DNA of 32,000 nucleotides from Promethearchaeota archaeon. GTDB lineage: Archaea; Asgardarchaeota; Lokiarchaeia; Sigyniarchaeales; Promethearchaeaceae. The notes beneath the pieces were generated by a model. The model had not been told where the DNA came from, made no database searches, and worked only from the letters and a program-made list of their open reading frames with translations. Below are positions 2,673 to 17,977 of this stretch, piece after piece. A program made the position numbers and the translations under genes. The DNA lies in the NCBI GenBank assembly GCA_016933055.1, contig JAFGBS010000009.1:167590-199589 (forward strand), read 5' to 3'. Numbering within the stretch: position 1 is the stretch's first letter; the number at the start of each line of letters is the position of its first letter.

Positions 2673-3236
2673 ATGATAATTGCAATTTCTGGATTGCATG
2701 GGACTGGAAAATCAGTTGTAGGAAAAAAAATAGCAGAAAAACTTGGATTAGCGTATTACTCCACGGGAGACTTATTTCGCGCTATTGCACAGGAAAAAGG
2801 ATTATCATTAGAAGATCTGTCTAACCTCGCAGAAAAGGACAAAACTATAGATTATACCATCGATTATCGCATAAAACAACTTGCACTGAAAGGAAATTGC
2901 GTATTGGATAATCAACTTAGTTCGTATCTTCTTAAAGATTTAGTTGATTATAGTGTTTTGTTGGCATGTGATGAGGAAATTAGGATTAAAAGAATGAAAG
3001 AGAGAGACAAGGAGGAACTGGGTGCCAAAATTCAAGAAACTCAAGTACGTGAGCGTTCGGAGAGAAAACGATTCTTAGAATTTTATGGTATTGACATCCA
3101 TGATCCAGACAAAATCAAGGAAACCTTTGACTTGATTTTGGATACTACTCATTTATCTATTGAAGAAGTGACGTCGAAAATATTAACAGCTATTCAAGAA
3201 CAAGAGGGATTTTCACTTAAGGATCCGAAAAATTAA
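2673..3236 (+). CDS. cmk: Cytidylate kinase, archaeal type
   Basis: MIIAISGLHGTGKSVVGKKIAEKLGLAYYSTGDLFRAIAQEKG is the P-loop plus conserved archaeal Cmk N-terminus. The track ORF starts at 2631, but the internal ATG at 2673 gives the canonical N-terminus, so the exact start is uncertain. Confidence 0.85.
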   Translation: MIIAISGLHGTGKSVVGKKIAEKLGLAYYSTGDLFRAIAQEKGLSLEDLSNLAEKDKTIDYTIDYRIKQLALKGNCVLDNQLSSYLLKDLVDYSVLLACDEEIRIKRMKERDKEELGAKIQETQVRERSERKRFLEFYGIDIHDPDKIKETFDLILDTTHLSIEEVTSKILTAIQEQEGFSLKDPKN

Positions 3237-3332
3237 TATTTTTTCCACAACAGAAGAGGTTACACCTTGGTCTATCTTTCACCCTACATGGGAGATAAGA
3301 TATACTGAGCAAAATTACAATTGGTGACAATA

Positions 3333-3608
3333 ATGGGTGTCTATGACATAGGACAAGTATGCGTAAAATTACTCGGTCGAGAAGCTGGGTATCTTTGCAC
3401 TATCGTGGAAGTAATCGATAAAAACTTTGCATTAGTAGAAGGCTTGAAAGTAAAGCGGAGGAGATGTAACTTCAAACATTTATCTCCTACGAAACATATG
3501 ATTGAAATCAAGAAGGGTGCTAATAAAAAGGCAATTGAAGAAGCAATTGAGAAAGCAAAATTAAAGGAAAAATTCGAAACAAAAAATGTTCCGAAATTGC
3601 AACTTTAA
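3333..3608 (+). CDS. rpl14e: 50S ribosomal protein L14e (eL14)
   Basis: KOW-like IGQVCVKLLGREAGYLCTIVEVIDKNFALVEG...VKRRRCNFKHLSPT. The track ORF starts at TTG 3321; ATG 3333 is the more likely start. Confidence 0.85.
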   Translation: MGVYDIGQVCVKLLGREAGYLCTIVEVIDKNFALVEGLKVKRRRCNFKHLSPTKHMIEIKKGANKKAIEEAIEKAKLKEKFETKNVPKLQL

Positions 3609-3610
3609 CC

Positions 3611-3636
3611 AATCTATTTATTTTTTATTTTTAAAA
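3611..3636 (+). promoter_or_regulatory. A/T-only tract between rpl14e and the tRNA: probable oligo-T terminator for rpl14e and TATA-like element for the tRNA
   Basis: aatctatttattttttatttttaaaa lies directly after the rpl14e stop and roughly 3-28 nt upstream of the tRNA 5' end. Confidence 0.3.
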
Positions 3637-3638
3637 AA

Positions 3639-3751
3639 GCAGGTGTAATCAAGTGGTTACGATGCTAGCCTGGAATGAACGGAATAATTCCGTAAAATCC
3701 CGGTTAGCTAGTGGGTGAAAGCCCGCATGGGTTCGAATCCCATCGCCTGCG
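3639..3751 (+). tRNA. tRNA-Ser(GGA) with a 30-nt intron at the canonical 37/38 position
   Basis: Hand-folded. Acceptor GCAGGTG/CGCCTGC (one G-U) with discriminator G. D arm ATCA-AGTGGTTA-CGAT. Anticodon stem CTAGC/GCTAG with loop C-T-GGA-A (anticodon 3672-3674). Intron 3676-3705. Long variable arm T-GGGT-GAAA-GCCC-GC (class II). T arm ATGGG-TTCGAAT-CCCAT. No encoded CCA. Confidence 0.8.
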
Positions 3752-3769
3752 CTCTTAAAAACAATAAAA

Positions 3770-5143
3770 TTAAGATGGATTACGAATTATTTCCAGTATT
3801 TTATCCCGTTTCTTCAAAGATTCAGTAGCCGATAGTTCAATTTTACGTTCCATTTCCTCCTTTTTCTCTGGATCTTCTTCTCCGATTACCTTTTTAATGG
3901 GAGTGTAGGCGGACTCCCGAAACCGGGGAAGAATAATAGATTCTCCTGAGGGGTTTTTGAAAATTACATGATTTGAATCCGTAACTTGACCAATTTCCAT
4001 GATTTTCACTCCCGCTTTTTTAACAAGTTGAATAATTTTCTCAGACATACTTGGGGCTACAAATAACAATAAAGCATCTAATGATACTCCAAGATAATCT
4101 ACACCCGTTTTTTTTAGCAAATCTAATACTAAGGGATCCACCAGTTGTTCCACCTTTGATATTGAAATCTCAACTCCAGTTTTTGATTCGTAGATAATTT
4201 CGTATAAATCTCCTCGCAGACCTCCGTTGGTAACATCACACATGGTCCGAATATGAGGAATAAACTCAGAATTCAAAATGGTTTTTGCTGCAGTTAAAAA
4301 TTTGATGTTCAAGGTGGCTTTCAATGCATCATGATTTCCTGAATAAATCGCAGTGGTAGATATAGTCCCCCCTCCTGCGCCTTCCGTCATTAATATTTTA
4401 TCCCCGACTATAATGTCTCTACGTGCAAGTAAATTGTGTGTAATTCCAATCACTGCAATACCACCTGTAATTCGGGTTCCGATAACCATATCTCCCCCAA
4501 TTCTAAGTGTAGAGCCCGCGGTTATCGGAACTTCCGTCAGTTCAGCAACAGCAGAAACTCCTGCCATAAAATCGAATAATTTTCCTACATCTGCATCATC
4601 TCCCAAATGAATATCTACCATTATTGAAATAGGCACAGCTCCCTTTACATAGATGTCTCGTAATCCGGCGCGAGTAACATGAAATCCCGCCAAAAACGGA
4701 TAATCACTCAATCGACTATGCATTCCCTCCATTTTGGATATGATTAGTAAATCTTTGGAACCTTCCACTGTATCAGAAAGTTTTACCGCTCCTGCATCAT
4801 CTAAAGATTTTGGAGATAAATAAGCTTCAATGGAGGTACTAGATACTTCTCCAATGAGTTTGTGCACAAAAAAATCTCCTATCCCCCGACATCCAACTCC
4901 TTGTTCTCCCACTGTAATATTGGATTCGGGAATTTTCAGGATTTCCCTAACTACTAAATCCTCGCCCGAGTATTCGGATTTTACACACTCTTCCCAGATT
5001 GCAAGAGCCAGTTTACTAGCATCTTTTCTACTGATTTCCTTATAGACTAAGTACTCGTCTACCAATTTTTCCAGAATCTCGTTTTTTTTCCATTTTTTAG
5101 TAATTAAACTACGAGTAGTACCTTCCAGATCAGTCATAAGCAT
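3770..5143 (-). CDS. AIR-synthase-related protein (PurM/ThiL/HypE superfamily) with an N-terminal extension of about 70 aa
   Basis: 457 aa. A glycine-rich core (DIHLGDDADVG, GGDMVIGTRITGGIAVIG, TEGAGGGTIST, DVTNGGLRGDL) is typical of the PurM-like ATP-binding fold. The specific function cannot be assigned. Confidence 0.7.
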   Translation of the reverse strand: MLMTDLEGTTRSLITKKWKKNEILEKLVDEYLVYKEISRKDASKLALAIWEECVKSEYSGEDLVVREILKIPESNITVGEQGVGCRGIGDFFVHKLIGEVSSTSIEAYLSPKSLDDAGAVKLSDTVEGSKDLLIISKMEGMHSRLSDYPFLAGFHVTRAGLRDIYVKGAVPISIMVDIHLGDDADVGKLFDFMAGVSAVAELTEVPITAGSTLRIGGDMVIGTRITGGIAVIGITHNLLARRDIIVGDKILMTEGAGGGTISTTAIYSGNHDALKATLNIKFLTAAKTILNSEFIPHIRTMCDVTNGGLRGDLYEIIYESKTGVEISISKVEQLVDPLVLDLLKKTGVDYLGVSLDALLLFVAPSMSEKIIQLVKKAGVKIMEIGQVTDSNHVIFKNPSGESIILPRFRESAYTPIKKVIGEEDPEKKEEMERKIELSATESLKKRDKILEIIRNPS

Positions 5144-5230: not shown

Positions 5231-6352
5231 TTGCGAGTGTACATAAAAACACCATGCCGATTACATTTTAGCTTAATTGATATGAATGGTTCGCTAAATC
5301 GAGTCGATGGAGGAATAGGTCTTACCCTGAAACAACCTAATTTTACCTTAGAAGTCCTTGATCGTGAATCTCTTATTCATCGAGGAGTAGGGAAGTTTGC
5401 TTGGGAACTTTTACCGGAAAAGCAAATAGTCCTTGAAACAGATTTAGGTCAAGTCGTTTTTTCAATAGAATGTTCAGATTGCCCCAATCCCGATGAATTG
5501 TTAGATACCGTATCAGATATCACAGAAAAATTTATCCACCAGCTCACTGATAAATTCTCGCTCGCTAAATCTGATAAATTCCCTTTGAAATTTACGATAT
5601 GGGATTTTCTGTTTTCCCATATGGGTCTTGGTTCCAAAACTCAAATGGCACTTGCAATTGCATCCTCCATCATAAAGATTCTCGGATTAGATGTACACAT
5701 AGATGTTGAAACACTTACTCAAATGGTGGGGAGAGGAGGGACTTCGGGAATTGGATTTCGCTCTTTTGAAAATGGAGGTTTCATTTTGGATTGCGGTCAT
5801 CGATTTGGGAAAAATCTGGAGAAAGAAAGTTTCTTACCTTCGTCAGCTTCTCATGCTAAACCTGCACGTACAATTTTACGCTATGATTTTCCAGAGGAAT
5901 GGTACGTGCTTGTTGTAATCCTAAACGTTCCAGCGGGTGCATCGAATATGGAGGAAATTAATATCTTCCAAAATCACTGTCCTATCCCAATAGAAGAAGT
6001 CCAGCAAGTGACTCATCATATTTTGATGCAACTACTTCCCGGAATTATCGAGAAGGATTTGGTCAATTTTGGCGAAGCGGTGAATTCCATCCGAAAAATT
6101 GGATTTAAAAAAATCGAAATCGATCTACAACACGATCACATAAAGGAATTAATTAAATTCTTAGAACAAAAATCCTCAAAATGTGTGGGGATGAGTTCAT
6201 TCGGTCCCACGGTATTTTCCATATTTGAATCAAAGCCACTAGCATTGGAGATGCTGGATCATATCAAGAAAAAATTCTCATCGGTTGGATTTACTTCGTA
6301 TATCACTACTGCTAATAATACAGGAGCCGATATTGAGGTAACTCCTCAGTAA
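5231..6352 (+). CDS. mptG: Beta-ribofuranosylaminobenzene 5'-phosphate (beta-RFAP) synthase, GHMP-kinase fold; committed step of methanopterin biosynthesis
   Basis: The N-terminus (M)RVYIKTPCRLHFSLIDMNGSLNRVDGGIGLTL is characteristic of beta-RFAP synthases. GHMP-like motifs MGLGSKTQ and GRGGTSGIG are present. The start is TTG 5231 or GVG-type GTG 5237. Confidence 0.75.
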   Translation: MRVYIKTPCRLHFSLIDMNGSLNRVDGGIGLTLKQPNFTLEVLDRESLIHRGVGKFAWELLPEKQIVLETDLGQVVFSIECSDCPNPDELLDTVSDITEKFIHQLTDKFSLAKSDKFPLKFTIWDFLFSHMGLGSKTQMALAIASSIIKILGLDVHIDVETLTQMVGRGGTSGIGFRSFENGGFILDCGHRFGKNLEKESFLPSSASHAKPARTILRYDFPEEWYVLVVILNVPAGASNMEEINIFQNHCPIPIEEVQQVTHHILMQLLPGIIEKDLVNFGEAVNSIRKIGFKKIEIDLQHDHIKELIKFLEQKSSKCVGMSSFGPTVFSIFESKPLALEMLDHIKKKFSSVGFTSYITTANNTGADIEVTPQ

Positions 6353-6394: not shown

Positions 6395-7858
6395 TTAAAA
6401 TTGATCTAATTTTTTGGATTGGATCCAAATGTCCTCTAAAACGGGGGCAAACATTTTGATATGTTCATCCAATACTGAGCCCATCCCCGCTACTTGTAGT
6501 TCTCCATCTCCTTTGGAGACAACACAGACAATCATTTCCTCAAAATCTTTATTGAGAGCCCAAACCGTGCCGCGGGGGAAATATCGCAAGTCAACATTGG
6601 TCATTTCCTTTAATGTGTCCACTTTTCCTTTATCAGCAGAACTATTCAAATCAAAATCGGTAGAGATACGAACATTGATACGGGACTTTACTTTTGAGAG
6701 TGCTGTAAAATCAATATCTTTGATCGTGGGACAAATTACATATAACCGCATCTTAACCATGGAAAATGCCTCGTTTATCTGCGCTTTCATAGCTTCTGGT
6801 GATCTTATGAACCATACATCCTTAAAAGTCATCATAGAGGCTGCTTTAGAACGTTCCCAAAATTCCTGCATAGTTTTTTCTGCCAGATCCAATTGTCGGA
6901 CAACTGACATCATGGTATCTTCATCCAGTGTTTCCATTACTTCCTTTTGGAATTGCCCTTTTAATTCATTAATTCCTTTTTGAATAGAATTATTCACTTC
7001 AGTGACGCGTTTTTCTAAATCTCCTAATGTCTCTTCTAATCCTGCTTCGATATTGGTGAAAGAATCTCCTATTCCTGAACTTATCTCTCCAGCTGTATCC
7101 GTAATACTTCCTAATTGCTCAATAACTTGATCTAAGGTGTCTTGTGTAGTTTGGATTACCTTATCTCGGAAGTACCCTGCCATTTCTTCAAATTGGTCCT
7201 TAATAATACGTGAAACTATCTTTTCTGCAAAACTTGACAAGGCTCCCACTCGGAATTGCTTCTCGAATGCTTGCGAGATTTCAGATTTTATCGTTTCCAA
7301 TCGAGATTGCATTCGTCCGAATTCCATTTCAATATCTGGGGGAACTACTTCCTTAAGATTCAAAATAAATAATTTTAAATCATGGAATTTTTGAACCCCT
7401 TTCATTTGATTTTCAAATTTTGAGAGCTGGTCTTTCATTTTCACGGGGAGGGTTTCCTTCATTTCACGAATAAATTCCACATATTCTTGAAATTTGTCTA
7501 AGGATGCAATAGATTTCTCCATCCCGATGAACCTTCCCTCTAAAGCCGTAGGAGCTGCACTCTTCAATCCAGTAATAGATTCCTTAAATTGATGTATTTG
7601 TTTCATTAATGCAGCATATGGGGGTAATGCGGAATAATGGATAGTTTTTCCTGGTACTTCTCTTACCAATCCTTTTTCTACCAAATCTTTCGCGATTTCT
7701 TGCGCCCGTACATCATCTACTCCACCTAAAAGTCCCATTTCACCGGCACTAACTGGTCCTCTTCCAGTGATCCGAAAATAAACCTCTATTTCGTCTGGAG
7801 CTAATCCGATTAATTCGAGGACTTCTTGAGTAGATTTAAACTCTTGTTCACTTGACAT
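6395..7858 (-). CDS. TrmB-type winged-HTH protein with a long central coiled-coil insert and a TrmB-C/PLD-like C-terminal domain
   Basis: The N-terminus VLELIGLAPDEIEVYFRITGRGPVSAGEMGLLGGVDDVRAQEIAKDLVEKGLVREVPGKTIHYSALPP fits the TrmB HTH. Roughly residues 90-340 are heptad-like and E/K/Q-rich. The C-terminus VWFIRSPEAMKAQINEAFSMVKMRLYVICPT...INVRISTDFD resembles the TrmB middle/PLD-like domain. The start lies 8 nt after the stop of the upstream gene. Confidence 0.55.
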   Translation of the reverse strand: MSSEQEFKSTQEVLELIGLAPDEIEVYFRITGRGPVSAGEMGLLGGVDDVRAQEIAKDLVEKGLVREVPGKTIHYSALPPYAALMKQIHQFKESITGLKSAAPTALEGRFIGMEKSIASLDKFQEYVEFIREMKETLPVKMKDQLSKFENQMKGVQKFHDLKLFILNLKEVVPPDIEMEFGRMQSRLETIKSEISQAFEKQFRVGALSSFAEKIVSRIIKDQFEEMAGYFRDKVIQTTQDTLDQVIEQLGSITDTAGEISSGIGDSFTNIEAGLEETLGDLEKRVTEVNNSIQKGINELKGQFQKEVMETLDEDTMMSVVRQLDLAEKTMQEFWERSKAASMMTFKDVWFIRSPEAMKAQINEAFSMVKMRLYVICPTIKDIDFTALSKVKSRINVRISTDFDLNSSADKGKVDTLKEMTNVDLRYFPRGTVWALNKDFEEMIVCVVSKGDGELQVAGMGSVLDEHIKMFAPVLEDIWIQSKKLDQF

Positions 7859-7866
7859 GTTTTATT

Positions 7867-9015
7867 TCACTTCCCTTTTTTTTCGTGAAAATCATAATAT
7901 ACTTTTTCTAGATAATCCAAATGTTTGATCGCAGTCTCTTTTTTAATGATTCCCTCTTCTTGATCCTTACGGATATTCTCTAACATATATTCAGGGTAAA
8001 ATGGTCGAACTGCAACATCCGTGAGTAAAAATACCCACTCGACATTTTTGTTATCTTTAATTATTTTTAAAATATTGTCTTTCTCCATTACCGATAGCAA
8101 ATGAGCAACATCTAAGGCACCTTCATCTGTTCCTTTGGGAATCTTATTCAACGGGTAAGGTCTATCTCGGAATAGTGCTAAATAATCAAATTTATCTGGA
8201 TTAGTCAAATTGCGAGCAAGAACCAGATTATCTTCTTCTGTTGGCTTATAGTCTGCGAAAAATTTCTTCACTTCTGAAAGATATTTTTCGGCGAGATTTG
8301 GGTTTGGTAAGTTATTTTTAGCGTTATCGATGAGATCAAACGCTGGAGCTCGAAATATTGTAAAATCTGAGATGAGGAAAAGAAAAACTTCCGCTACTCC
8401 TTCAATCCAATCTTGTTTTACTAAACCACTTTTTACAAATGGATCTAGTGTGATATCAAGATTGGTAATGATTTTCTTTAATGACTCTTCCAGCAATGCT
8501 TGGAGTTGTTTCTTCGAGTAGGCACGTTCCCTAAGTAATTCTAGGATTTTTCTCCCTTTTTGACTATAATAAATCTGAGCTAGTAATTGCTCCTTCGTCA
8601 AATATTTCAATCTTTCCAATAAGAACAGTGCATTTTTCAGATACTGTTTAAGTTTCTTCACTACTTCATAATTTGCACTGATACTTGTACCGAGTTGGCG
8701 GAGGTATTTCAAGATCGCTTCATTTATATCTTTAATTACAGCCTCTCCGAACATATCTGGATCCTCACCCAATTCCAATATGAGATTAATCATAAAGGGG
8801 GTAGGGGAATCCATGCCTGTGAAGTAGGATGCAACGTTGGACTGAACTTTTTCTAGACGGACCAAGACATTTCCCGCTTCTGCAACACCAGTAATATGAG
8901 CATAAAATACTCGCATCATATCATCTAGATCCACTTTCAATTCTTCGGGATAATTCAACTGCACAATTAAACCATCAGTATCGGTCCATTTTGTAACTAC
9001 AAATCCTTTAGGCAT
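7867..9015 (-). CDS. Hypothetical cytoplasmic protein: N-terminal alpha/beta domain (roadblock/longin-like pattern) followed by helical, winged-helix-like segments
   Basis: 382 aa with no signal peptide or TM helix. The first ~110 aa (MPKGFVVTKWTDTDGLIVQLNYPE...NVLVRLEKVQSNVASYF...FMINLILELGEDPDMF...) alternate beta and alpha propensity. GRKILELLRERAYSKKQLQALLEES...LVKQDW and a second C-terminal segment look like wH units. Stop/start spacing to the upstream paralog is TAA-A-ATG. Confidence 0.5.
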   Translation of the reverse strand: MPKGFVVTKWTDTDGLIVQLNYPEELKVDLDDMMRVFYAHITGVAEAGNVLVRLEKVQSNVASYFTGMDSPTPFMINLILELGEDPDMFGEAVIKDINEAILKYLRQLGTSISANYEVVKKLKQYLKNALFLLERLKYLTKEQLLAQIYYSQKGRKILELLRERAYSKKQLQALLEESLKKIITNLDITLDPFVKSGLVKQDWIEGVAEVFLFLISDFTIFRAPAFDLIDNAKNNLPNPNLAEKYLSEVKKFFADYKPTEEDNLVLARNLTNPDKFDYLALFRDRPYPLNKIPKGTDEGALDVAHLLSVMEKDNILKIIKDNKNVEWVFLLTDVAVRPFYPEYMLENIRKDQEEGIIKKETAIKHLDYLEKVYYDFHEKKGK

Positions 9016-9016
9016 T

Positions 9017-10633
9017 TTATTTGCTCCCTTCTATTTTCTTTTCTGGTATAGTTTTTTCTTCTGGGGGTGACATATCTTCATAACCCGACATGTCTTTTTT
9101 TGGAGCAGCTTTCTCTGAAGGCTGCGATGGTGCTTTTCTACTAGACTTATCTAGTAGACGTTTTTCTTCTTCAAAAATATTTCTTCCAATTGTGTTGGAG
9201 TCTTTTGTTTGCAATGGCTTGGTAGCCCTTCCATGTCGGATTTTTCGTCGTAGTGACTTTACAGTTCTAACTTGTGCGGGGAATTTAAAAATACCTTCAT
9301 ACAATCCGATTCCTGTAGCTAAGGCAGCAAGCAATCCTGCAGAACTATAAATATAAGGTTGCAAGTTCGTTGGAGGTGGGTCTGGCAATATAACTATATA
9401 TGTTAGTTTGAGCACTACGTTATCTATGTAAATTCCAATCGGAGAATCTAATTCAAAATTATCCCCAATATACATTTGAATAGATACGGTAATATTTTCA
9501 TCCAAACTAATTAGTGATGTAACATTGTATCCATCAGGATTAGCAACTTGGTAAATATCTGTGGCGGCACTGATTTTGACCGTTTCATAGAGTTTCTTAT
9601 TACTGACAAACAATCGAAATTCCGAGTTTGGAGAAGCATCTGTTGGCCATGGGGTATCAATTTTGTACGAAAATTCAAAGGACGCGTCTCGAATCAAAAC
9701 ATTCGTGCTATTAAGTGAATTCCCGATTCCATCCCAAGAAGCTGTTGTTAATTGGTTCATTTTCTTTTGATACGTGAACGATAAACTCACATTTTTGATA
9801 TATATGTCATCAAAAAAGTCTTGATCGCTATTTCTATTATCCTCACAAAATATTCTGATCCCCACGGTTATTGTAAAGTTAAAATCATCCGTATTTAACA
9901 CTGAAGTAAGAAAGAATTTCAGATTTTCTTCGGTGACAGTTGTTATTAATGTATCCTCCATTTGGTCGAATGTCCCCGCACTATCTTTACCGAGATCAGA
10001 AGTTTGATTATATGCAATTTCATACACTTTTTGCTTTGGTAAATCTGAAATTAGTAAATAATACCTAATGTAATCGTAATCTGCCGCTTGATGGACAGCA
10101 TCTCCAGGAACTTCAATTCCTCCAAAATCAGGATTGTTTGCATGAACGGTTGCATTGATTACAGCACTTACGGATGCAGAAGTGATTGTATAATCACTCA
10201 TATTATTCGGCATGCTAACATTATAATCAAAATGAACAGAAGGTGATTGGTCTGAACGCTGACCATAAGTGTCTCCCCAGTAATGAGAAACATAAAATCC
10301 TTCTGAAGTCACATCATAATCATCTGGCAAATCTGGATAGGCTATATTGTTTACTGCTGTCCATGTATCAGAATTCAAAGGTGCATTTAGCTCCCATTCC
10401 AATTCCTCTCCAAGTAAATTATAAAGTGCCTCTCCTGAACTCGAACTAGTAGTAATATCAGATTCATCTCCTGCTATAGAAGTTGACCATTGAGAACTGA
10501 TAGGATCATCAAAACCACTTATCCAAACTACATCTTCATAAAGTATTTCCCGAGCAGAAACTAAAGGAATTGTGCTTAAAAGACTAATCACACATAAAAT
10601 GCCTATGCTGGTAATTAATAGGGATCTTTTCAT
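9017..10633 (-). CDS. Surface glycoprotein paralog 1: signal peptide, two jelly-roll/CBM-like modules, Pro-rich stalk, one TM helix, conserved basic cytoplasmic motif, low-complexity tail
   Basis: Signal peptide MKRSLLITSIGILCVISLLSTIPLVSA|RE. I counted 9 N-x-S/T sequons by hand. Stalk PDPPPTN, TM YIYSSAGLLAALATGIGLY, then EGIFKFPAQVRTVKSLRRKIRHGRATKPL and a 64-aa K/E/S/P-rich tail. The start overlaps the stop of paralog 2 (ATGA at 10630-10633). Confidence 0.8.
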   Translation of the reverse strand: MKRSLLITSIGILCVISLLSTIPLVSAREILYEDVVWISGFDDPISSQWSTSIAGDESDITTSSSSGEALYNLLGEELEWELNAPLNSDTWTAVNNIAYPDLPDDYDVTSEGFYVSHYWGDTYGQRSDQSPSVHFDYNVSMPNNMSDYTITSASVSAVINATVHANNPDFGGIEVPGDAVHQAADYDYIRYYLLISDLPKQKVYEIAYNQTSDLGKDSAGTFDQMEDTLITTVTEENLKFFLTSVLNTDDFNFTITVGIRIFCEDNRNSDQDFFDDIYIKNVSLSFTYQKKMNQLTTASWDGIGNSLNSTNVLIRDASFEFSYKIDTPWPTDASPNSEFRLFVSNKKLYETVKISAATDIYQVANPDGYNVTSLISLDENITVSIQMYIGDNFELDSPIGIYIDNVVLKLTYIVILPDPPPTNLQPYIYSSAGLLAALATGIGLYEGIFKFPAQVRTVKSLRRKIRHGRATKPLQTKDSNTIGRNIFEEEKRLLDKSSRKAPSQPSEKAAPKKDMSGYEDMSPPEEKTIPEKKIEGSK

Positions 10634-12396
10634 TGGTTTCCTTCCCCCTTTGAGGTAATATCAAGATTAGTATCGGTTTTTGACGTATCAATAGATTTAG
10701 GTGGTTTGGGTTCGTTAATTTTATCTGCTTCAACATAGGACTTTGAGGAAGCTTCTTTACTTGCAGCGGTACTTTTTGTAGAAGATGTTTTCAGTTTTTT
10801 CTGAAGTTGTGTTTTTTCTGAAGCGTGTATCTCATTACTAATTGAGCTAGCATCCTTTTTTGTTAAGGGTTTCGTGCCTCGCCCCGTCCGTATTCTTCTC
10901 TTTAAATTACGTATGTGACGAACTTGAGCTGGATATTTGAAATGGCCCTCATAAGCACCAAATCCTACCCCTAATAATACCACTCCTCCCATTAACCCGT
11001 AAAGATATGGCCAATTACTCTCAGGTGGAGGAGCTGGAGGTTCAATTAATACATAGGCTACCCACAATTGTACATTTGTTATAGAAACTGTAATATTATC
11101 TGCAAGCGCAAATTCATCTGCCAGATATAATTCAATTGAAAGTGTAATATTCACTTCCTTTTGAAGTAATTTCGTTACATTAAACCCTTCAGCCTTTGAT
11201 TCTTGAAATGAAAAAGTTCCAGAACTTAATTTAATGGTTTCGTTATGCATATTTCCATTAATTCGAATCCGTAACTCCGAATTTGGGGAGGACAGCTCCC
11301 AAGGTGTGTCGATCTTGAAATCGTATTTAACAATTCCATTTGTGATTTGTGCATTATCCTCAACGATGGAATTTCCTACTTGGCTCCAAGAAGCAGATGC
11401 GTCACGATTGATTATTTTTTCATAACTGAATGTTAAATTATAAGATTTAATTAGTAAATCATCCCATGAATCATCATCGTTTAAAAAATTATCTTCGCAC
11501 CATATTTTCATTCCCATGGTAAAGTTAAAATTTCGATTATCCGTGGAAAGAACATCAGAAAGAAAAAATATTAAACTCTCTTCTGGAACAGTGAACAAAT
11601 AAGTATCTGTTAAGCTATCATATGTTGTTGTCAAATATTCAGCATCCGAGGTATATACATCTTGTCCGAGAGGATAAGTATATTGTCCTGTTTGATACTG
11701 GGCGATTTCATATGATTTTGTATTGGTAAGATCAGAAACTAATGAATAAAATCTTACATAATCGTAAGTCGAGAATTGAGGTGTTGTCGCCTGTGATGGT
11801 GGAACATCCGCCACGTTAGTATAATCCCCATAAGCTTCAACTCCACCATTTCCATTACCGTAACCGTTATTGGCTTTAACAGTAGCGTTCACAATTACAG
11901 AGACATTTGCTGATGTAATTCTATAATCCGACATGTCAACAGGCATAGATATATTTCTAGTCCAATGAACTGAGGTTAATTGACCTGCTTCGGCTTCCGT
12001 CCAGAAATGTGTAACATACATACCTTCAGATGTGATATCATAATCGTCAGGGAATGTAGTTAATTCTGGATTTTGTACTACCGTCCAATTATCAGTATGT
12101 GGTGGATCTTCTGCGATCGAGAATGTGCGATAATCTCCCACTACCTTGAAATCAGCTTGCCCCGAAGTCGGGCTTTCTGCTATCAAATCAGTCAAATCTC
12201 CATTAACCGAACTTATCCATTCGGGATCAATCGGAGCAATAAAACCGGGATTAACCATCCATTCCTTATCGGTTCCATCTTGAGCATTTAGTAAAGAGAT
12301 ATGGGAAAAAAACGCAATAACGATAAAGAAAACTATTAATCGATAATATTTCTTTTTTATTGTAAACCCCTCTGTAGGTTTTGTTATCTTAATCAC
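10630..12396 (-). CDS. Surface glycoprotein paralog 2 (same architecture as 9017..10633)
   Basis: GTG start, hydrophobic signal/anchor YRLIVFFIVIAFFSHISLLNA|QDG, and 10 sequons by hand count. Blocks shared with paralog 1 include DDYDITSEGMYVTHFW, MSDYRITSANVSVIVNATV, YEIA, FFLSDVLSTD, NFNFT, WCEDN, LTFSYEK, KIDTPW and SPNSE. Stalk EPPAPPPESN, one TM helix, then YEGHFKYPAQVRHIRNLKRRIRTGRGTKPL and a 77-aa S/K/T-rich tail. Confidence 0.8.
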   Translation of the reverse strand: MIKITKPTEGFTIKKKYYRLIVFFIVIAFFSHISLLNAQDGTDKEWMVNPGFIAPIDPEWISSVNGDLTDLIAESPTSGQADFKVVGDYRTFSIAEDPPHTDNWTVVQNPELTTFPDDYDITSEGMYVTHFWTEAEAGQLTSVHWTRNISMPVDMSDYRITSANVSVIVNATVKANNGYGNGNGGVEAYGDYTNVADVPPSQATTPQFSTYDYVRFYSLVSDLTNTKSYEIAQYQTGQYTYPLGQDVYTSDAEYLTTTYDSLTDTYLFTVPEESLIFFLSDVLSTDNRNFNFTMGMKIWCEDNFLNDDDSWDDLLIKSYNLTFSYEKIINRDASASWSQVGNSIVEDNAQITNGIVKYDFKIDTPWELSSPNSELRIRINGNMHNETIKLSSGTFSFQESKAEGFNVTKLLQKEVNITLSIELYLADEFALADNITVSITNVQLWVAYVLIEPPAPPPESNWPYLYGLMGGVVLLGVGFGAYEGHFKYPAQVRHIRNLKRRIRTGRGTKPLTKKDASSISNEIHASEKTQLQKKLKTSSTKSTAASKEASSKSYVEADKINEPKPPKSIDTSKTDTNLDITSKGEGNQ

Positions 12397-12556: not shown

Positions 12557-13894
12557 TTACTCTACAGTGTTATGTTCCTTGTTCCGTGGATTGTACAAAA
12601 TTTTTGCCGTGTTCAATCGATCAGATTTATGTTCTCTAAATACCCCTCCGATCCTTACTGATAAATCTTCAAAACTATACTTGAATTTAATTAACTCCCA
12701 CAATTTCAAAGCTACGAACCAGAATCCGACTACGATCATTAAATACGAAATGTTCATGATGACATTGCCCATTACCGCATCAAATTCTCCACTTAACTCC
12801 CCAAAGCGTGAGTGAAAGATGTTACTCCACAAAATATTCCATAAAGCTTCTAAACAATAAATCGTCAACGAAAGCATTCCGAAGCGACGTATAAAGATAC
12901 TTCTTTTTACCGTTTTCTCACCAGATTCAAAATCAAATTTTCTGAAAAACCACGGGATCCACAATAACATCAGCCCGAGATTTATAAATGAGAGATCTGG
13001 GGGTATGTTCTTGTATCTAAATAAGTAAGTAATAATATCTGTAGAAATAGTAAATAGGTGATATCCTACTAGTAATAATCCAACAATGAGGAAAATCAAT
13101 CCCAGTTTTCTGCAATAGCGCTTAACGGCTTTATAAGGACGATCTTCCGCTAAAAAAATACCGATCACAATTCCAATAAGTGCATATCCTGCATAAGGCA
13201 GTACACAGTGAAGGGATCCTGCTATAAAAGAGAGGAAAAATGCTGGTACATAATACAATCTACCCATTTCCAAATAAGATAAAAATAAGGGATTTAACCA
13301 TTCCCATAGTGCCTTAGAAATGGTTAACCACACAATAGCAAATATTGTGAGATTACGTATATTTATGTTTTTTGATTCCTCAAACCGATCTTTCCGCCAC
13401 ATGAATAATAAAGTAAAACAGGAAATTAATCCTGAACTTGCAATCATAGATAACGCATCGGCTTTAAAGAAGATTTCAATCTCCGGCAGACTAAATGCTC
13501 TTTTCTGAATTGAACCAGTGAAAAGGGAGTACAATTGATGATCACCCGTTAGAGCAGGAGTTGCCATAACAAATAATCCCATGTAGACAAAATGAAAAAG
13601 CAAGATCAATAAATTATTTATGATAGATGGTCTCACACTTCTCCAGATAGAATTACCTGCATCTTTTCGGTGGTAAACGATATAAGAATTTGCAATACCA
13701 GTAATTAATGCGAATAATCCTGCCCAAGTGCCTAAATAAAGCATTGGGGCAAATATGACTAGGGGTGAACGTGGAAGATATTCTACTGCATTTCCTTCAC
13801 CGAGAAAAATTCCGAACACGATACCATGTGCAAAAACGACCCCAAAAATAGCTAAGCCTCGAATAAAATCGATACTTAACAGTCGTTTAGACAT
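12557..13894 (-). CDS. Multi-pass membrane protein, acyltransferase-3 / DUF1624 (HGSNAT-like) type
   Basis: The N-terminus MSKRLLSIDFIRGLAIFGVVFAHG matches the R..S.D..RG.A...V..H signature of membrane O-/N-acyltransferases. About 10 or more hydrophobic helices follow. Confidence 0.55.
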   Translation of the reverse strand: MSKRLLSIDFIRGLAIFGVVFAHGIVFGIFLGEGNAVEYLPRSPLVIFAPMLYLGTWAGLFALITGIANSYIVYHRKDAGNSIWRSVRPSIINNLLILLFHFVYMGLFVMATPALTGDHQLYSLFTGSIQKRAFSLPEIEIFFKADALSMIASSGLISCFTLLFMWRKDRFEESKNINIRNLTIFAIVWLTISKALWEWLNPLFLSYLEMGRLYYVPAFFLSFIAGSLHCVLPYAGYALIGIVIGIFLAEDRPYKAVKRYCRKLGLIFLIVGLLLVGYHLFTISTDIITYLFRYKNIPPDLSFINLGLMLLWIPWFFRKFDFESGEKTVKRSIFIRRFGMLSLTIYCLEALWNILWSNIFHSRFGELSGEFDAVMGNVIMNISYLMIVVGFWFVALKLWELIKFKYSFEDLSVRIGGVFREHKSDRLNTAKILYNPRNKEHNTVE

Positions 13895-13973: not shown

Positions 13974-15542
13974 TTAAAGCGTTTTTGTGGATTTCACGTT
14001 AAGCTCGTCTATATTTAGTCTCATTTTAGTTAACATATTCACTTGATCTGCTCGTGAGGGGATATTTAGTTTCTTTATTCTTGCACCTCTTCGGATTTTT
14101 CTTCTTATGCTACGTATTTTTCTCACATGGACAGGAAATTTAAGAATTCCTTGATACAAGCTAAATACAATAAAAAGTACTGCTATTCCTCCAGCAAGGC
14201 CTGCTGTCAAGGGTAAATAATTGGGTGGTGGTTCTGGAATCGGATCAGGGGTGAATATCATATAAGAGATCTTAAAATAGATGTTATCGATGAATATTGT
14301 GTAATTAAGCGTATTCTCAAATTCATCCGCAATATATAATTGGAATGAAACTGCCACGCTCAAGTTTGGAGTCAATAAATCCTTTAAAGCTCTTCCACTA
14401 AATTCAATTGTTTGATATATTGGAGTAAAACTATCCAATTTTACCGTTTCACTGTATTTTCTGCCATTAATAACGGTTTGAATCTCACTATTAGGGGATG
14501 CGGAAGTCCATAACGAATTGATTTTGTAATCAAAACTCAGTGACGCATTTGTGATAGTTGTGCAATTAACGACATCACCAAGTTGACTATATGAGATGGA
14601 ACTAAATTGGTCAATTTTTTTCTCATAGGTAAAGGATAAGCTGAAATTTTTGATACGTAGATCGTACCATGTATCTCTGTCGTAGGTAGGGTAATTATCT
14701 TCTGCATAAGCATTAATTTCGAGAATAATCGAGAAGTTTGTGTAATCGTATTGTAAAACTTTTGTGAGATAAAGGATTAGGAGATCTTGGTCAACAGGAA
14801 CTAATTCGGTATCGTTTAAATATACTCTTTCACCATACGTATTTGGTCCTACAGAACCCGATATGTCTTTCCCTAGGGTTGTGGTTTTATTATATGCAAT
14901 CCGATAATTTTCAATGTTGTTTGGATCTGTAACCGTGATTGAAAACCGTGCGTAATCTCCAACACCAATATATCCACTACTCAATAACACATCACCTGGT
15001 GTTTCTAAGTTTGTATCTCCACTCCCATTTACAATTGCACTAACTGAGGCTGATGTAATCACATAATCACTCATATTAACAGGAAGTTCAACTGAATGCT
15101 CCCATGTCATACTGGGGAAATTTCTGGTTTGGTTTCCCGTTACACCGAAATAATTTGTGACGGGTTCTTCTAGGTACTCATGCCCAATATAGCAGCCATT
15201 TTCATCAATACCATAGATATCGGGTAAAATAAACTCAGGATTGGGGATTTCAGTCCAATTATCGGAGATCGGCGGATTTGCATTGAAGACATAATCTCCC
15301 TCCTCACCAATTAAAACGAATGTGGCTTCTCCTCCTGTTATTTGTCCATCCAAATCTTGATCATCCCCTGAAGTTTCGATTACCCAGAAAGAAGAATTAT
15401 CGAATCCATTATTTCGTAACCATTCAATATCTGTGTAATAATCTTCTCGTGCTGATACAGAAACAATTTTAGAAGAGACAATCGAGGATAAAATCAAGAT
15501 TGATATAATTATTACTAATCTCTTGATCCACTTCATTTTCAA
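13974..15542 (-). CDS. Surface glycoprotein paralog 3 (more divergent member of the same family)
   Basis: The signal peptide ends VSVSA|RE, as in paralog 1. I counted 13 sequons by hand. Shared blocks are NMSDYVITSASVSAIVN, RIAYNKT, NFS, AEDN, RIKNFSLSFTYEKK, SPNSE and FIDNIYFKISY. Stalk PDPIPEPPPN, one TM helix, then YQGILKFPVHVRKIRSIRRKIRRGARIKKL and a 30-aa tail. Confidence 0.8.
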   Translation of the reverse strand: MKMKWIKRLVIIISILILSSIVSSKIVSVSAREDYYTDIEWLRNNGFDNSSFWVIETSGDDQDLDGQITGGEATFVLIGEEGDYVFNANPPISDNWTEIPNPEFILPDIYGIDENGCYIGHEYLEEPVTNYFGVTGNQTRNFPSMTWEHSVELPVNMSDYVITSASVSAIVNGSGDTNLETPGDVLLSSGYIGVGDYARFSITVTDPNNIENYRIAYNKTTTLGKDISGSVGPNTYGERVYLNDTELVPVDQDLLILYLTKVLQYDYTNFSIILEINAYAEDNYPTYDRDTWYDLRIKNFSLSFTYEKKIDQFSSISYSQLGDVVNCTTITNASLSFDYKINSLWTSASPNSEIQTVINGRKYSETVKLDSFTPIYQTIEFSGRALKDLLTPNLSVAVSFQLYIADEFENTLNYTIFIDNIYFKISYMIFTPDPIPEPPPNYLPLTAGLAGGIAVLFIVFSLYQGILKFPVHVRKIRSIRRKIRRGARIKKLNIPSRADQVNMLTKMRLNIDELNVKSTKTL

Positions 15543-15643
15543 CTTAATTCAGATCCCTTTGAATGATATGATAATTTTGGATATTGATTCTATATATATC
15601 TTAACTTATACATTACATTAACTATCAAATATTTGTGAATACC

Positions 15644-16039
15644 ATGAATGAAGAAACTATAGCTGATAGAAAATTCCCTGAAGATTTTACTTCTAAAGAG
15701 CGCGCAATTTTTGAGGTCGGCATCAAACTTGGAGCGCTTTATCATATCGCAATGGGTATGCCCATTTCAAAAGATCCAATGACGATTGCATCCATCGAGA
15801 CCGCTCTTGCTAATTCTATTAAATCTCAACCCTATGTCACTGAGATGAAAGTGAAATTAAACGTGGACAATATTATGGGGTCAAAATCCCATGAATTTGA
15901 TTACTCTGAAATCACATCTTCGACTCTAAACGCAGAAATCCGACTTAAGTATAACAATATAGAAGTGTTAGGAATGTTGGAATGGAATGAAGAACTCAAC
16001 TACCCGCTTATGTTCGTCAAGAAGATACGCTCAGACTAG
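15644..16039 (+). CDS. Probable archaeal-type dihydroneopterin aldolase (MptD-like)
   Basis: About 131 aa. KERAIFEVGIKLGALYHIAMGMPIS resembles the conserved FE.GIKLGAL.H core I recall for the archaeal DHNA/MptD family. The H4MPT gene context supports this. The track start is GTG 15635, but ATG 15644 is more likely. Confidence 0.45.
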   Translation: MNEETIADRKFPEDFTSKERAIFEVGIKLGALYHIAMGMPISKDPMTIASIETALANSIKSQPYVTEMKVKLNVDNIMGSKSHEFDYSEITSSTLNAEIRLKYNNIEVLGMLEWNEELNYPLMFVKKIRSD

Positions 16040-16776
16040 GATTTTATTTCTTCCAAAAACTTATCAACCATATCGCAGACCTTTAACGCTCGCTGAGATG
16101 CAGAGAATCGACGAATATCATATTGAAAATCCCTTACTCTATCGATTAATTTTTGAATATCATTTCGGGAATTTTGCTGTTTTTGGATAGCAGGAATTTT
16201 TGATGCGTACACAATAGCTTCTAAAGCTAAATTGTCTCCTCGATTAACTGGTTGAGATTGTTTGAATGATTGATACATCTCCTTTACAAGTACTTGAAAA
16301 GTTACCTTAAATTCAGGGTGTTCCTCACTAGAATGAGGATTTTTCAGAAATATAGGTTTATTTCGTATATTGATTTCTCCAAGAATGAGAATTTGGGATT
16401 GTTTTAGGAACGCATATCCTTTGTGAATATCCAAGTAAGATTGATCCATCTCTTCAACATCGATACCGGCATGTTCTCCTCTTAACGCTGCCAGAGCAAA
16501 ATATTCGACATCATCGGTGAAATTGATGGTTATAAATTTGACATTCGGGTTCATTAACAGCTCAAAAGTATCTGTATCGGGATATGGTTTTAGGAACATT
16601 ACCTTATTACCGCTAAATCTTATTCCCATAGCCGAAGCATTGAATCTCTGTTGATTTGGCCATTGAATAACTACAATTGATTCATATAATTTACCATTTT
16701 CGAAGGGGAAATCTATTTCGTCCATGCTATCAATGTTAATTTGAATAAAGTCTTTATTTTTGTTATGTGCACCCAT
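16036..16776 (-). CDS. DUF447-like protein (FMN-binding split-barrel-like; a family that accompanies H4MPT-linked C1 genes)
   Basis: LYESIVVIQW...FNASAMGIRFSGNKVMFLKPYPDTDTFELL...ITINFTDDVEYF fits the remembered DUF447 pattern (YE.I..T...NaAPMG....l.l.p..gs.T..NL....vN..dD...f). This is memory-based, not a search result. Confidence 0.45.
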   Translation of the reverse strand: MGAHNKNKDFIQINIDSMDEIDFPFENGKLYESIVVIQWPNQQRFNASAMGIRFSGNKVMFLKPYPDTDTFELLMNPNVKFITINFTDDVEYFALAALRGEHAGIDVEEMDQSYLDIHKGYAFLKQSQILILGEINIRNKPIFLKNPHSSEEHPEFKVTFQVLVKEMYQSFKQSQPVNRGDNLALEAIVYASKIPAIQKQQNSRNDIQKLIDRVRDFQYDIRRFSASQRALKVCDMVDKFLEEIKS

Positions 16777-16824: not shown

Positions 16825-17895
16825 ATGGTTCGTGTTGTCGGTGTAGATCCGGGTTCTGCGAGTTGGGATTTTGTTGGGATGGATGAAGATGGATCATTCT
16901 TTCTGGATCACTCTATTCCGACCAAACAAATTCAAAAACATCCTGAACTCTTCTTAAACCTTATAGAAACAACTGATTTTGATATAATGTCTGCACCCTC
17001 AGGATTTGGACTTCCCTTAAAAAAAATTGAAGATTTGAAAGAAGAGGATTTCTTTTTTGCACTCTTAAAGAAAAATCCCGAAAAAGGTATGATCGTGGGA
17101 CTAGGGCAAATTCTGAAAATACTACAAGAACAAAAAGTAAATGGATATTTTTTACCCAGTGTGAAGCACCTTTCTACGGTTCCAAGACATAAAAAAGTGA
17201 ATAAAATTGATTTAGGAACTGCAGATAAATTATGTACCGTCGTAGTAGGTATTCGCAATCAAATGGAGGATTATAACATCTCTTGTGAGGAGTCCTCTTT
17301 CATCATGGTTGAAATGGGTTATGGTTTTAATGCCGTCATTGCAATTGAAAATGGACAAATAACTGATGGAATTGGAGGATCTCAACTAATGGGTTTCCGT
17401 GCGGTAGGTTCCATTGATGCTGAAATAGCTTATTTGATGGGAAAGATCAAGAAAAAAGATGTGTATCGAGGTGGAGTGAGCTCAATAGCGGGATATTTTG
17501 ATATGAGAGCTGAAGAGCTCTTATTATTATCAAAAAAAGATAGAAAAACAAAATTGGCAATGGATGCATTTTATGATAACTTGATCAAATCCGTGTACGC
17601 TATCTCGAGCTCCTTTTCATCGAGGGATGCTATTAAAGAAATTTTATTTGCAGGAAGGCTTGCAAAAATTGATGCTTTAATTCAACCTTTGAAAGAAAAA
17701 TTATCTTTTATTGCCCCCACCAAAGTTATGCGATCATATGTATCAATTTCCAAAGAATCTGCCCAAGGCGCTGCATTTATAGCAAATGGATTATCGGGTG
17801 GAAGATTTGCAGACATCGTTGACAATTTGAAAATTCGAGAATCATCTGGCAGTATTTTGGATGATATCTATCTACCGTTGGAACAGCGAATGTAA
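16825..17895 (+). CDS. ASKHA-fold (acetate/sugar kinase-Hsp70-actin) protein, DUF1464-like
   Basis: The N-terminal phosphate-1 motif is MVRVVGVDPGSASWDFVG. Later glycine motifs are GTADKL and DGIGGSQLMG. At 356 aa the size fits DUF1464 and BcrAD/BadFG-type ATPases. Confidence 0.5.
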   Translation: MVRVVGVDPGSASWDFVGMDEDGSFFLDHSIPTKQIQKHPELFLNLIETTDFDIMSAPSGFGLPLKKIEDLKEEDFFFALLKKNPEKGMIVGLGQILKILQEQKVNGYFLPSVKHLSTVPRHKKVNKIDLGTADKLCTVVVGIRNQMEDYNISCEESSFIMVEMGYGFNAVIAIENGQITDGIGGSQLMGFRAVGSIDAEIAYLMGKIKKKDVYRGGVSSIAGYFDMRAEELLLLSKKDRKTKLAMDAFYDNLIKSVYAISSSFSSRDAIKEILFAGRLAKIDALIQPLKEKLSFIAPTKVMRSYVSISKESAQGAAFIANGLSGGRFADIVDNLKIRESSGSILDDIYLPLEQRM

Positions 17896-17977
17896 AATAG
17901 GTTTTATATGAGAGATTTTTACTTATTCTTTAATAGATCAAATCCTATATTTACTCCACATATAGAGATGCATACAG

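Follow-up and report, generated by a model that had tools for sequence, protein, structure and literature searches.

What does a strongly basic, conserved stretch of 30 residues do on the inner face of an archaeal membrane? The question is raised by a 32,000-nucleotide window (the whole stretch of DNA analyzed here) of the genome of a Promethearchaeota archaeon, assembly GCA_016933055.1, contig JAFGBS010000009.1. The window encodes three paralogous, predicted single-pass surface proteins, here called par1, par2 and par3, and each carries the stretch directly after its only transmembrane helix. An earlier note on this DNA had read the stretch as a receptor-like cytoplasmic motif and had named two neighboring gene products, of 382 and 487 amino acids (aa), as its candidate partners. 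Comparative evidence, namely linkage of the motif to those two genes, its portability between ectodomains and its covariation with subtypes of the partner, supports a receptor-like reading. We lean towards the view that the 30-mer is a docking element of Asgard-specific single-pass surface proteins, which would recruit the 382-aa and 487-aa proteins as a cytoplasmic pair.

The earlier note had quoted three 30-mers with their coordinates (Table 1) but had left the strand unstated. Translated on the plus strand, the three intervals give nonsense with stop codons, and that reading was rejected; the genes lie on the minus strand, where the same intervals encode exactly the 30-mers quoted. A six-frame scan of the window with loose motif patterns returned, beyond these, just two chance matches, both broken by stop codons. 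The par1 product is 100% identical to NCBI JW776_06260, from a metagenome-assembled genome (MAG) labeled Candidatus Lokiarchaeota.

The three proteins are 40-43% identical over their full length, and in each the motif begins directly after a 19-residue hydrophobic stretch. Each paralog opens with a hydrophobic, signal-like segment. N-x-S/T sequons number 9, 10 and 13 in the ectodomains and 0 in the tails, and the net charge is 0 to -2 in the 18 residues preceding the transmembrane helix and +8 to +12 in the 30 residues past it. Because of the signal-like N-terminus, the confinement of sequons to the part before the helix and the charge asymmetry, all indicators point to the N-out/C-in orientation that had been proposed, and the proteins have the features of type I single-pass membrane proteins. 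Their description as glycoproteins is a prediction from the sequon counts. No Pfam or NCBIfam model, S-layer (surface-layer) domain models included, matched par1, par2 or par3. An AlphaFold2 (AF2) model of a homologue gives the par1-type ectodomain as tandem beta-jelly-roll domains resembling carbohydrate-binding modules (CBM), with a predicted local distance difference test (pLDDT) score >90. Its structural neighbors are weak (BDI_1231, BcsB, PNGase and the malectin-like ANX2, all with a TM-score <=0.27). The Promethearchaeum syntrophicum member of the family (L067:9764-11815; DSAG12_03150, WP_147664212.1) is named in RefSeq as 'cellulose biosynthesis cyclic di-GMP-binding regulatory protein BcsB'. 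With a fold-level resemblance as weak as a TM-score of about 0.13, this name probably over-annotates the protein.

Within the trio, 12 of the 30 motif positions are invariant, compared with 122 of 538 over the whole protein (binomial P = 0.025), and the motif ranks 10th of 509 thirty-residue windows by conservation. Its flanks are far more variable, with 3 of 22 positions invariant in the transmembrane helix and 0 of 64 in the tail, so that a conserved stretch does stand immediately after the helix, as first described. Between par1 and par2, 16 of the 20 identical motif residues are written in different codons, and the nucleotide identity is just 54-59%. Because identical residues are mostly spelled with different codons, the conservation reflects selection on the protein sequence, not gene conversion.

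A broader sample sharpens the picture and narrows the conserved part. Over 52 family members, the 10-mer FPAQVRTVKS reaches 3.36 bits per column, close to the best ectodomain blocks (3.5), while the stalk and transmembrane helix score 2.0-2.4 bits and the tail <2.2. Taken as one block, however, the 30-mer is no better than average in the same profile, at rank 220 of 509. The core, Y-x4-[KR]-[YF]-P-x2-[VI]-R-x2-R, recurs in 140 motifs from 52 Asgard genomic loci. Numbering from the Lys/Arg as position 0, Tyr at -5 is found in 140/140 of these motifs, Pro at 2 in 139/140, Val or Ile at 5 in 140/140 and Arg at 6 in 140/140; par1 has the complete universal core (Y(-5), K0, F/Y1, P2, V5, R6, R9). 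Because several of the invariant core residues, Y(-5), P2 and V/I5, are non-basic, the positive-inside rule cannot account for the conservation seen in these alignments, a point on which the original reading of the trio was right.

Past the proline, hydrophobic residues are spaced 3-3-4 (V..V..L...I) and form a narrow stripe, with a hydrophobic moment (muH) of 0.47-0.81. The segment is thus best described, as a prediction, as a cationic amphipathic helix that a K-[FY]-P turn separates from the transmembrane helix. Two subtypes can be told apart. In subtype A, to which the window belongs, position 11 is Leu in 16 of 19 motifs; in subtype B (LKYPxPVRKVRKY+KTL) it is Tyr or Phe in 112 of 121. Subtype B has additional conserved positions at P21, I25, R28 and F32, and the non-basic ones listed for it are P21, I25, A31 and F32. 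In the major subtype conservation extends into the tail, to about +32, and includes a KLLKGKP element. The low-complexity tails had been called non-conserved; their lengths (64, 77 and 30 residues in par1, par2 and par3) and their divergence within the trio stand, but the description does not hold across the family.

The motif travels widely among Asgard archaea. The pattern [KR][FYW]P..[VILM][RK] occurs directly past the last transmembrane helix in roughly 65 of 82 homologues, some of them only 35-45% identical. The motif-bearing homologues come from MAGs labeled Loki/Promethearchaeota, Hermod-, Hod-, Hel- and Thorarchaeota, and an Odin label is found among carriers of the core as well. Of the conditions that the note had set for giving up its reading, absence of the motif from orthologs and an outward-facing tail were checked, and neither was borne out. 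When one genome per species was scanned for loci, 76 were found, and each of them has an Asgard label. One homologue (P0077) is labeled 'Candidatus Neomarinimicrobiota bacterium', and one locus (L014) is labeled Odinarchaeota though its layout is nearly identical to that of Promethearchaeota loci. Both labels are probably binning or labeling artefacts and not a sign of wider phyletic spread.

The motif is also portable between proteins. A profile of 91 positions covering the transmembrane helix and the motif, built with fragments of 66-100 aa from a search with a 58-column module, was run exhaustively against 1.84 billion representatives (clusters at 50% identity). It recovered 348 clusters at E <= 1e-3, of which 182 reach E <= 1e-10. 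Throughout, the module lies near the C-terminus or occurs twice in proteins built of tandem units, and protein lengths reach 2009 aa. Among representatives of at least 450 aa, 47 of 96 have a par1-type ectodomain and 49 of 96 do not; among those without it are full-length proteins that have signal peptides. When domains were mapped with hidden Markov models, several proteins encoded in the same gene clusters, 1145-1449 aa long, matched in the stalk, transmembrane helix, motif and proximal tail only; one such protein belongs to the cultured P. syntrophicum MK-D1. Pfam searches of seven module proteins with other ectodomains gave just sub-threshold Ig-like matches near the membrane. The motif is therefore found on at least two unrelated ectodomain types, in a juxtamembrane position throughout. 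In many loci a single open reading frame (ORF) of ~1113-1185 aa, or ~1810-1820 aa, holds two complete ectodomain-helix-motif units (L020:4520-7957, L039:4401-7835, L011:9836-15295). The first motif of such an ORF would, by its sequence, lie in a cytoplasmic loop between two transmembrane segments.

If the motif recruits a dedicated partner, the two should keep company in genomes. Linkage was counted from profile searches of all ORFs in the retrieved loci. A homologue of the 382-aa protein is present in 53 of 59 loci with motif-type surface proteins, and 48 of the 59 have a homologue of the 487-aa protein as well. In all six motif loci lacking the 382-aa gene, the array abuts a contig end. We compared these with loci of relatives in which a fused cytoplasmic domain, described below, replaces the motif. 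Where at least 3 kb of sequence was available on both flanks, the 382-aa homologue was found in 29/29 motif loci vs 0/9 fused-tail loci. Over all loci, the pair was found in 0/17 with a fused tail (Fisher P = 2.6e-12, uncorrected for phylogeny). The linkage is kept over three arrangements: surface-protein genes followed by the 382-aa and then the 487-aa gene; the pair transcribed divergently from the array; and, as in MK-D1, the pair preceding the surface-protein genes on the same strand. In a reverse test starting from four 382-aa homologues, every gene abutting upstream (552-1233 aa) was found to carry LYQTHFKYPPMVRKIRKLKKKV..., and a TrmB-like gene follows.

The partners also differ with the motif. 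Subtype A motifs occur with a partner of 374-382 aa and subtype B motifs with one of 417-424 aa. An A cluster, a B cluster and a fused-type gene coexist in a single MAG, YT2_053. The layout differs too: in subtype A the start of the 382-aa gene abuts the stop codon of a surface-protein gene, and in subtype B loci the pair is divergent from the surface-protein array. The motif therefore both co-occurs and covaries with a specific cytoplasmic partner. Clustering of the other ORFs in 78 loci revealed lineage-specific synteny only, with no conserved GTPase, protease or sortase. The proposal that the 382-aa and 487-aa proteins are the partners of the motif is thus strongly backed by comparative genomics, through linkage, the reverse test and subtype covariation, from which we infer direct binding.

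Other genes recur in one subtype or the other. A Roadblock/LC7 gene of 141-153 aa lies 3-5 kb upstream, on the opposite strand, in the subtype A loci L080 (1448-3150) and L081, L082 and L084 (about 2684-4360 in each), and L080 adds an Arf/RagA-like GTPase gene. These loci were reached from 382-aa homologues and the gene is absent from the window; its recurrence may be synteny only. Subtype B loci often carry, downstream of the array, two paralogous genes of ~350 aa and a gene of 148 aa (in 15 and 10 loci; for example L002:15866-18674, L063:19782-20960 and L010:17409-17888), which have no Pfam match. The 148-aa protein looks longin/roadblock-like by eye.

The 382-aa protein belongs to a family of >395 homologues, all annotated as hypothetical. 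Members from MAGs labeled Loki, Hod, Thor, Heimdall, Odin and Hermod are 58-65% identical, while the surface proteins are 35-45% identical. No Pfam or NCBIfam model matched the protein, longin and roadblock families included, and a profile of the family run against the sequences of the PDB matched no longin protein, NPRL2 or other solved protein. The AF2 model (pLDDT 78.6, predicted template modeling score 0.72) consists of an N-terminal beta-beta-alpha-beta-beta-beta-alpha domain, a helical linker and two winged-helix domains. The N-terminal elements are strands 4-11 and 15-22, helix 30-44, strands 48-54, 59-65 and 74-81, and helix 91-110. Foldseek recognized the longin fold in this domain, predicted with a pLDDT of about 57-80, at a probability of 1.00 and TM-scores of 0.52-0.54. 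Against the PDB, the model first found NPRL2/NPRL3 of GATOR1 (9o5d_D, E 1.3e-4) and then FNIP2. The best whole-chain matches (9o5d_D, 9o5a_H, 9v0j_A and 6ulg_N) reach a global TM-score of about 0.26. At the level of the domain, the matches are the Lst4 longin domain (4zy8, TM-score 0.54), a Lokiarchaeal Roadblock-Longin protein (8yqg, TM-score 0.53), SMCR8/C9orf72 and SRX (1nrj). Because there is no match at the sequence level, our claim is held to the modeled architecture: we describe the protein as a predicted longin plus winged-helix protein, not as a member of the NPRL2 family. In the alpha1/beta3 region of the longin domain, the A and B partner subfamilies share an FY.H.TG core, and many positions are fixed differently in the two.

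The second partner has a more familiar beginning. Residues 15-80 of the 487-aa protein match Pfam TrmB (PF01978) with 29.0 bits, above the cut-off of 25.6, which places this segment in the family. A weak match to TrmBL2 in the PDB (5bpd, E 0.027) was also found. The NCBIfam TrmB model NF040851 gave 22.4 bits, with a cut-off of 600, over residues 11-133 only, well short of equivalence to a full-length TrmB. The window encodes a short form of the protein, the usual homologues being 637-750 aa long. Those of 743-750 aa (L002:6261-8492, L067:7539-9791) carry in addition a zinc-ribbon-like CxxC...H...H segment at the N-terminus, and they have a helical region of greater length and a low-complexity, K/E/P-rich extension at the C-terminus. 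In PADLOC, the protein showed weak matches of its helical region to DruC and ZorA only.

Not all relatives of par1 end in the motif. P0064, P0070 and a 754-aa gene in locus L079 have the same ectodomain and one transmembrane helix, followed by a C-terminal TIR domain; the locus of these TIR-tailed relatives lacks both partners nearby. Two TIR-tailed genes stand there in tandem (L079:6688-8952 and 9126-11246), with a Ras/Roc GTPase gene and several TPR_MalT-type genes close by. In the motif-less members P0040, P0045, P0057, P0059 and P0069 (~710-740 aa; e.g. L032:9809-11962), a conserved cytoplasmic domain of ~250 aa (LRTQKFKD..IQGILLIH..SGLPIFS..) replaces the motif. It ends in a confidently modeled winged helix, the only confident part of the cytoplasmic domain in the AF2 model of P0040, whose residues 430-525 have a pLDDT <50. 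The N-terminal part of the fused domain shows a beta-beta-alpha-beta-beta-beta-alpha pattern by eye; neither sequence comparison nor AF2 confirmed a longin fold in it. The idea that the fused domain is a covalently attached 382-aa protein, in the manner of a Rosetta stone, was considered and is not established, given the lack of profile similarity and the pLDDT <50 of the N-terminal model. PADLOC defense models matched none of par1, the 382-aa protein, the 445-aa protein encoded between par2 and par3, P0064 and P0040. Because the same ectodomain is joined to the motif, to a TIR domain or to a fused winged-helix domain, the family fits, as far as its sequences go, a receptor scaffold with exchangeable cytoplasmic outputs.

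How might the motif work? In the mechanism that we favor, the transmembrane helix would end at the invariant Tyr and the [KR]-[YF]-Pro turn would break the helix. The following x-x-V-R-x-[VI]-R-x-[LY]-[RK]-[RK]-x-[IL] stretch would lie along the inner face of the membrane as a cationic amphipathic helix. This juxtamembrane element would recruit the co-encoded, translationally coupled longin plus winged-helix protein of 382 aa, which may act together with the TrmB-like helix-turn-helix (HTH) and helical protein of 487 aa. Surface proteins with different ectodomains could in this way be wired to one cytoplasmic complex, which would relay signals to a DNA-binding output or serve as a cortical scaffold. 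Longin and roadblock domains bind helical or extended segments of membrane-anchored partners, as in VAMP7-Hrb, LAMTOR1-Ragulator and SRX-SR-beta. Because such domains are platforms for segments of this kind, the 382-aa protein is, by analogy, more likely than the 487-aa protein to be the direct binder. A fuller version, in which Asgard archaea possess a receptor-adaptor system with interchangeable ectodomains, a juxtamembrane helix recruiting the longin plus winged-helix and TrmB-like proteins, and the same ectodomain scaffold alternatively wired to TIR in a Toll-like manner, is plausible but somewhat doubtful as a whole. We infer the physical contact, the partner that makes it and the downstream output (signaling or scaffolding) from comparative data.

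Several points weigh against a docking role. The interface is a putative one, proposed from comparisons between genomes, both structure models were single-chain, and the linkage statistics do not correct for shared ancestry. Subtype covariation could reflect the co-inheritance of neighboring genes. A gene for a TrmB-type HTH protein beside an operon is the classic signature of a local transcription factor, which would explain the linkage with no contact to the tail. The cationic amphipathic helix could work purely by binding anionic lipids. The fused-type proteins could use the 382/487 pair in trans, and in sequence their fused domain resembles neither partner family: BLAST and phmmer returned no match, hhalign gave a probability of 0.1-2% and Pfam nothing consistent.

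Some of these points combine into the strongest rival, in which the helix is a membrane-interface element only, serving topology, the tilt of the transmembrane helix or clustering on anionic lipids, and the 382-aa and 487-aa proteins regulate transcription of the operon locally and never touch the tail. We regard it as rather unlikely, yet as an explanation to be taken seriously. The net charge, the hydrophobic moment and the narrow V/V/L/I stripe are what a lipid-binding helix would have, but lipid binding needs neither the invariant Tyr, Pro and Val of the core nor P21, I25, A31 and F32 of subtype B. The regulator half of the rival draws on the TrmB-type HTH above the Pfam cut-off and the weak TrmBL2 match. 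It also draws on the divergent orientation of the pair in subtype B, as often seen with local regulators, and on the two winged helices of the 382-aa protein, which could bind DNA. However, it leaves unexplained why each array in one genome has its own subtype-matched pair, and why the 382-aa protein is far more conserved than the genes it is supposed to regulate. A helical region of 250-400 residues is atypical of TrmB regulators, the NCBIfam match covers the N-terminus only, and the abutment of the 382-aa gene start and the surface-protein stop codon in subtype A also speaks against it.

We consider it quite improbable that the motif is instead a sorting or processing signal read by a general machine, such as a translocon or insertase, a protease or a protrusion-targeting system, and not by the neighboring gene products. 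The fixed position of the motif relative to the transmembrane helix on many unrelated ectodomains would suit such a signal, as would a tripartite, portable organization like that of PGF-CTERM or LPXTG proteins. Lokiarchaeal cells do have distinct protrusions that bear surface proteins (PMC9834061). But the order of elements is wrong for a sortase or archaeosortase, since the signature is cytoplasmic, past the transmembrane helix, and followed by 30-110 more residues. The ORF clustering gave no conserved protease or sortase gene in the neighborhood, and a general machine needs no dedicated, subtype-matched 382/487 pair beside each array. There is, finally, next to no probability that the stretch has no special function and merely reflects recent duplication or gene conversion among tandem paralogs plus positive-inside bias: the three genes are indeed tandem paralogs and the enrichment within the trio alone is modest, but the codon differences noted above and the survival of the core in 35-45% identical proteins across Loki, Hod, Hermod, Thor and Odin MAG labels, and on unrelated ectodomains, contradict it.

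The genes of the docking model are closely packed in the window (Table 1). The TGA stop codon of par2 overlaps the ATG of par1 (ATGA), the 382-aa gene starts 1 nt past the par1 stop codon (TAA-A-ATG), and the 487-aa gene begins 8 nt past the 382-aa gene. A co-transcribed set had been proposed; for par2, par1 and the 382-aa and 487-aa genes the tight packing agrees with it, but par3 is set apart from this operon core by gaps of 79 and 160 nt and by the gene for the 445-aa membrane protein.

Table 1. Features of the surface-protein cluster, in coordinates of the 32,000-nt window.
Feature	Position	Strand	Description
Paralog 1 (par1)	9017..10633	-	538 aa; signal-like N-terminus (10553-10633), all-beta ectodomain, 9 sequons, transmembrane helix, motif, tail
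par1 juxtamembrane motif	9212..9301	-	aa 445-474, YEGIFKFPAQVRTVKSLRRKIRHGRATKPL, subtype A; from translation and conservation
par1 single C-terminal transmembrane helix	9302..9358	-	PYIYSSAGLLAALATGIGL; from translation and charge asymmetry across the helix
par1 distal cytoplasmic tail and stop codon	9017..9211	-	64 aa, K/E/S/P-rich
Paralog 2 (par2)	10630..12396	-	588 aa, GTG start; 77-aa tail; transmembrane helix 10954-11010
par2 juxtamembrane motif	10864..10953	-	YEGHFKYPAQVRHIRNLKRRIRTGRGTKPL
Paralog 3 (par3)	13974..15542	-	522 aa; 30-aa tail; transmembrane helix 14157-14213
par3 juxtamembrane motif	14067..14156	-	YQGILKFPVHVRKIRSIRRKIRRGARIKKL; hydrophobic moment 0.81, highest of the trio
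382-aa cytoplasmic protein	7867..9015	-	longin-like domain aa 1-110 (8686-9015), then two winged-helix domains (model); proposed motif adaptor
487-aa protein	6395..7858	-	TrmB-type winged HTH aa 15-80 (7619-7816), long helical region, C-terminal domain
445-aa polytopic membrane protein	12557..13894	-	between par2 and par3

The 445-aa protein has no family match in Pfam or NCBIfam, and among the 78 loci its homologue is confined to L001 and L003, which are the two closest relatives. It is probably an accessory gene and not a core component; its N-terminus (RLLSIDFIRGLAIFGVVFAHG) looks acyltransferase-3/DUF1624-like by eye. The cluster is flanked by genes of a pterin or methanopterin biosynthesis type (window 1598-2578, 5231-6352, 15635-16776 and 16825-19672), including a folE2-type GTP cyclohydrolase, a GHMP-kinase-like protein, dihydroneopterin aldolase, DUF447, DUF1464 and a pterin-binding protein. 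L001 has these neighbors as well, which makes the surface-protein cluster look as if it had been inserted into a housekeeping region. In L001, the closest metagenomic relative, both partner genes are split (L001:11626-14248; the 382-aa gene into 150+189 aa and the 487-aa gene into 148+336 aa), by either assembly frameshifts or pseudogenization.

No curated family in Pfam, NCBIfam or PADLOC covers the surface proteins or the 382-aa protein. In the cultured P. syntrophicum MK-D1 the genes are DSAG12_03149 to DSAG12_03152; three of the four have no functional annotation (the TrmB-like one is named in UniRef by its N-terminal domain) and one is labeled BcsB. Our literature search found no mention of these MK-D1 loci, of the motif or of the system. 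Lokiarchaea are described as lacking an ordered S-layer and as bearing unordered surface densities and complex surface proteins of unstated molecular identity (PMC9834061), and a study of MK-D1 detected no S-layer protein (PMC11284389). Being large, organized in tandem arrays and confined to Asgard archaea in all the genome loci retrieved, the family is a concrete candidate for a component of the Lokiarchaeal surface. With two dedicated cytoplasmic partners, the motif offers a testable route for communication between surface and interior. Because MK-D1 is cultured and carries the genes, peptide-binding, localization and proteomic work is feasible. The longin fold is otherwise tied to eukaryotic membrane traffic and GTPase regulation; if the docking model is true, these archaea would have a prokaryotic longin platform, anchored in the membrane and linking the surface of the cell with its interior.

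Comparison with known systems places the parts in context. Like archaeal S-layer glycoproteins, par1, par2 and par3 have a secreted, sequon-rich and beta-rich ectodomain, a single C-terminal transmembrane helix and a tandem arrangement of paralogs. Unlike S-layer or PGF-CTERM proteins, they lack an S-layer or PGF-CTERM signature (no PGF, PEF or LPXTG motif was found before the transmembrane helix when the three were examined for archaeosortase and sortase signals) and continue into a cytoplasmic extension of 60-107 residues with a conserved motif. The 487-aa protein resembles TrmB and TrmBL2 in its N-terminal TrmB-type winged HTH followed by a helix, but it has a helical insert of ~250 aa (to ~400 aa in the long forms), and no sugar-binding TrmB C-terminal domain was detected in it. 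The TIR-tailed relatives share with Toll-like and IL-1 receptors the order of ectodomain, one transmembrane helix and cytoplasmic TIR domain. In contrast to those receptors, par1-3 are without TIR, the ectodomain is jelly-roll/CBM-like and not built of leucine-rich repeats or Ig domains, and the TIR variants are unlinked to the 382/487 pair.

The closest parallels to the proposed adaptor are eukaryotic. In the model, the 382-aa protein has an N-terminal longin domain followed by winged-helix-type domains, as do NPRL2/NPRL3 of GATOR1 and FLCN/FNIP. Unlike in GATOR1, there is no DEPDC5-like or Rag GTPase gene in the conserved cluster, and the low global TM-score and lack of a sequence match keep the protein outside that family. 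A published account mentions NPRL2-like longin proteins of Asgard archaea in general terms (bioRxiv 10.1101/2020.10.19.343400). With LAMTOR1-Ragulator, SRX-SR-beta and the VAMP7-Hrb/SNARE helices, the proposed system would share a membrane-tethered segment and a partner of longin/roadblock fold, as the fold match of the 382-aa protein suggests. It differs from them in its anchor, a surface protein that spans the membrane in place of a lipidated peptide or a GTPase, and in that the cluster has no conserved small GTPase.

In eukaryotic CD44, CD43 and ICAM-2, basic juxtamembrane clusters bind the FERM domain of ERM adaptors. The archaeal system differs in having no FERM domain, a longin plus winged-helix protein as its candidate adaptor, a contact that is putative and a signature of its own, Y-x4-K-Y-P-x2-V-R-x2-R. 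What it shares with CD44, CD43 and ICAM-2 is the overall plan: a single-pass, N-out/C-in protein with varied ectodomains, a basic segment directly past the transmembrane helix, a poorly conserved tail and, as we propose here, a handle for a cytoplasmic adaptor.

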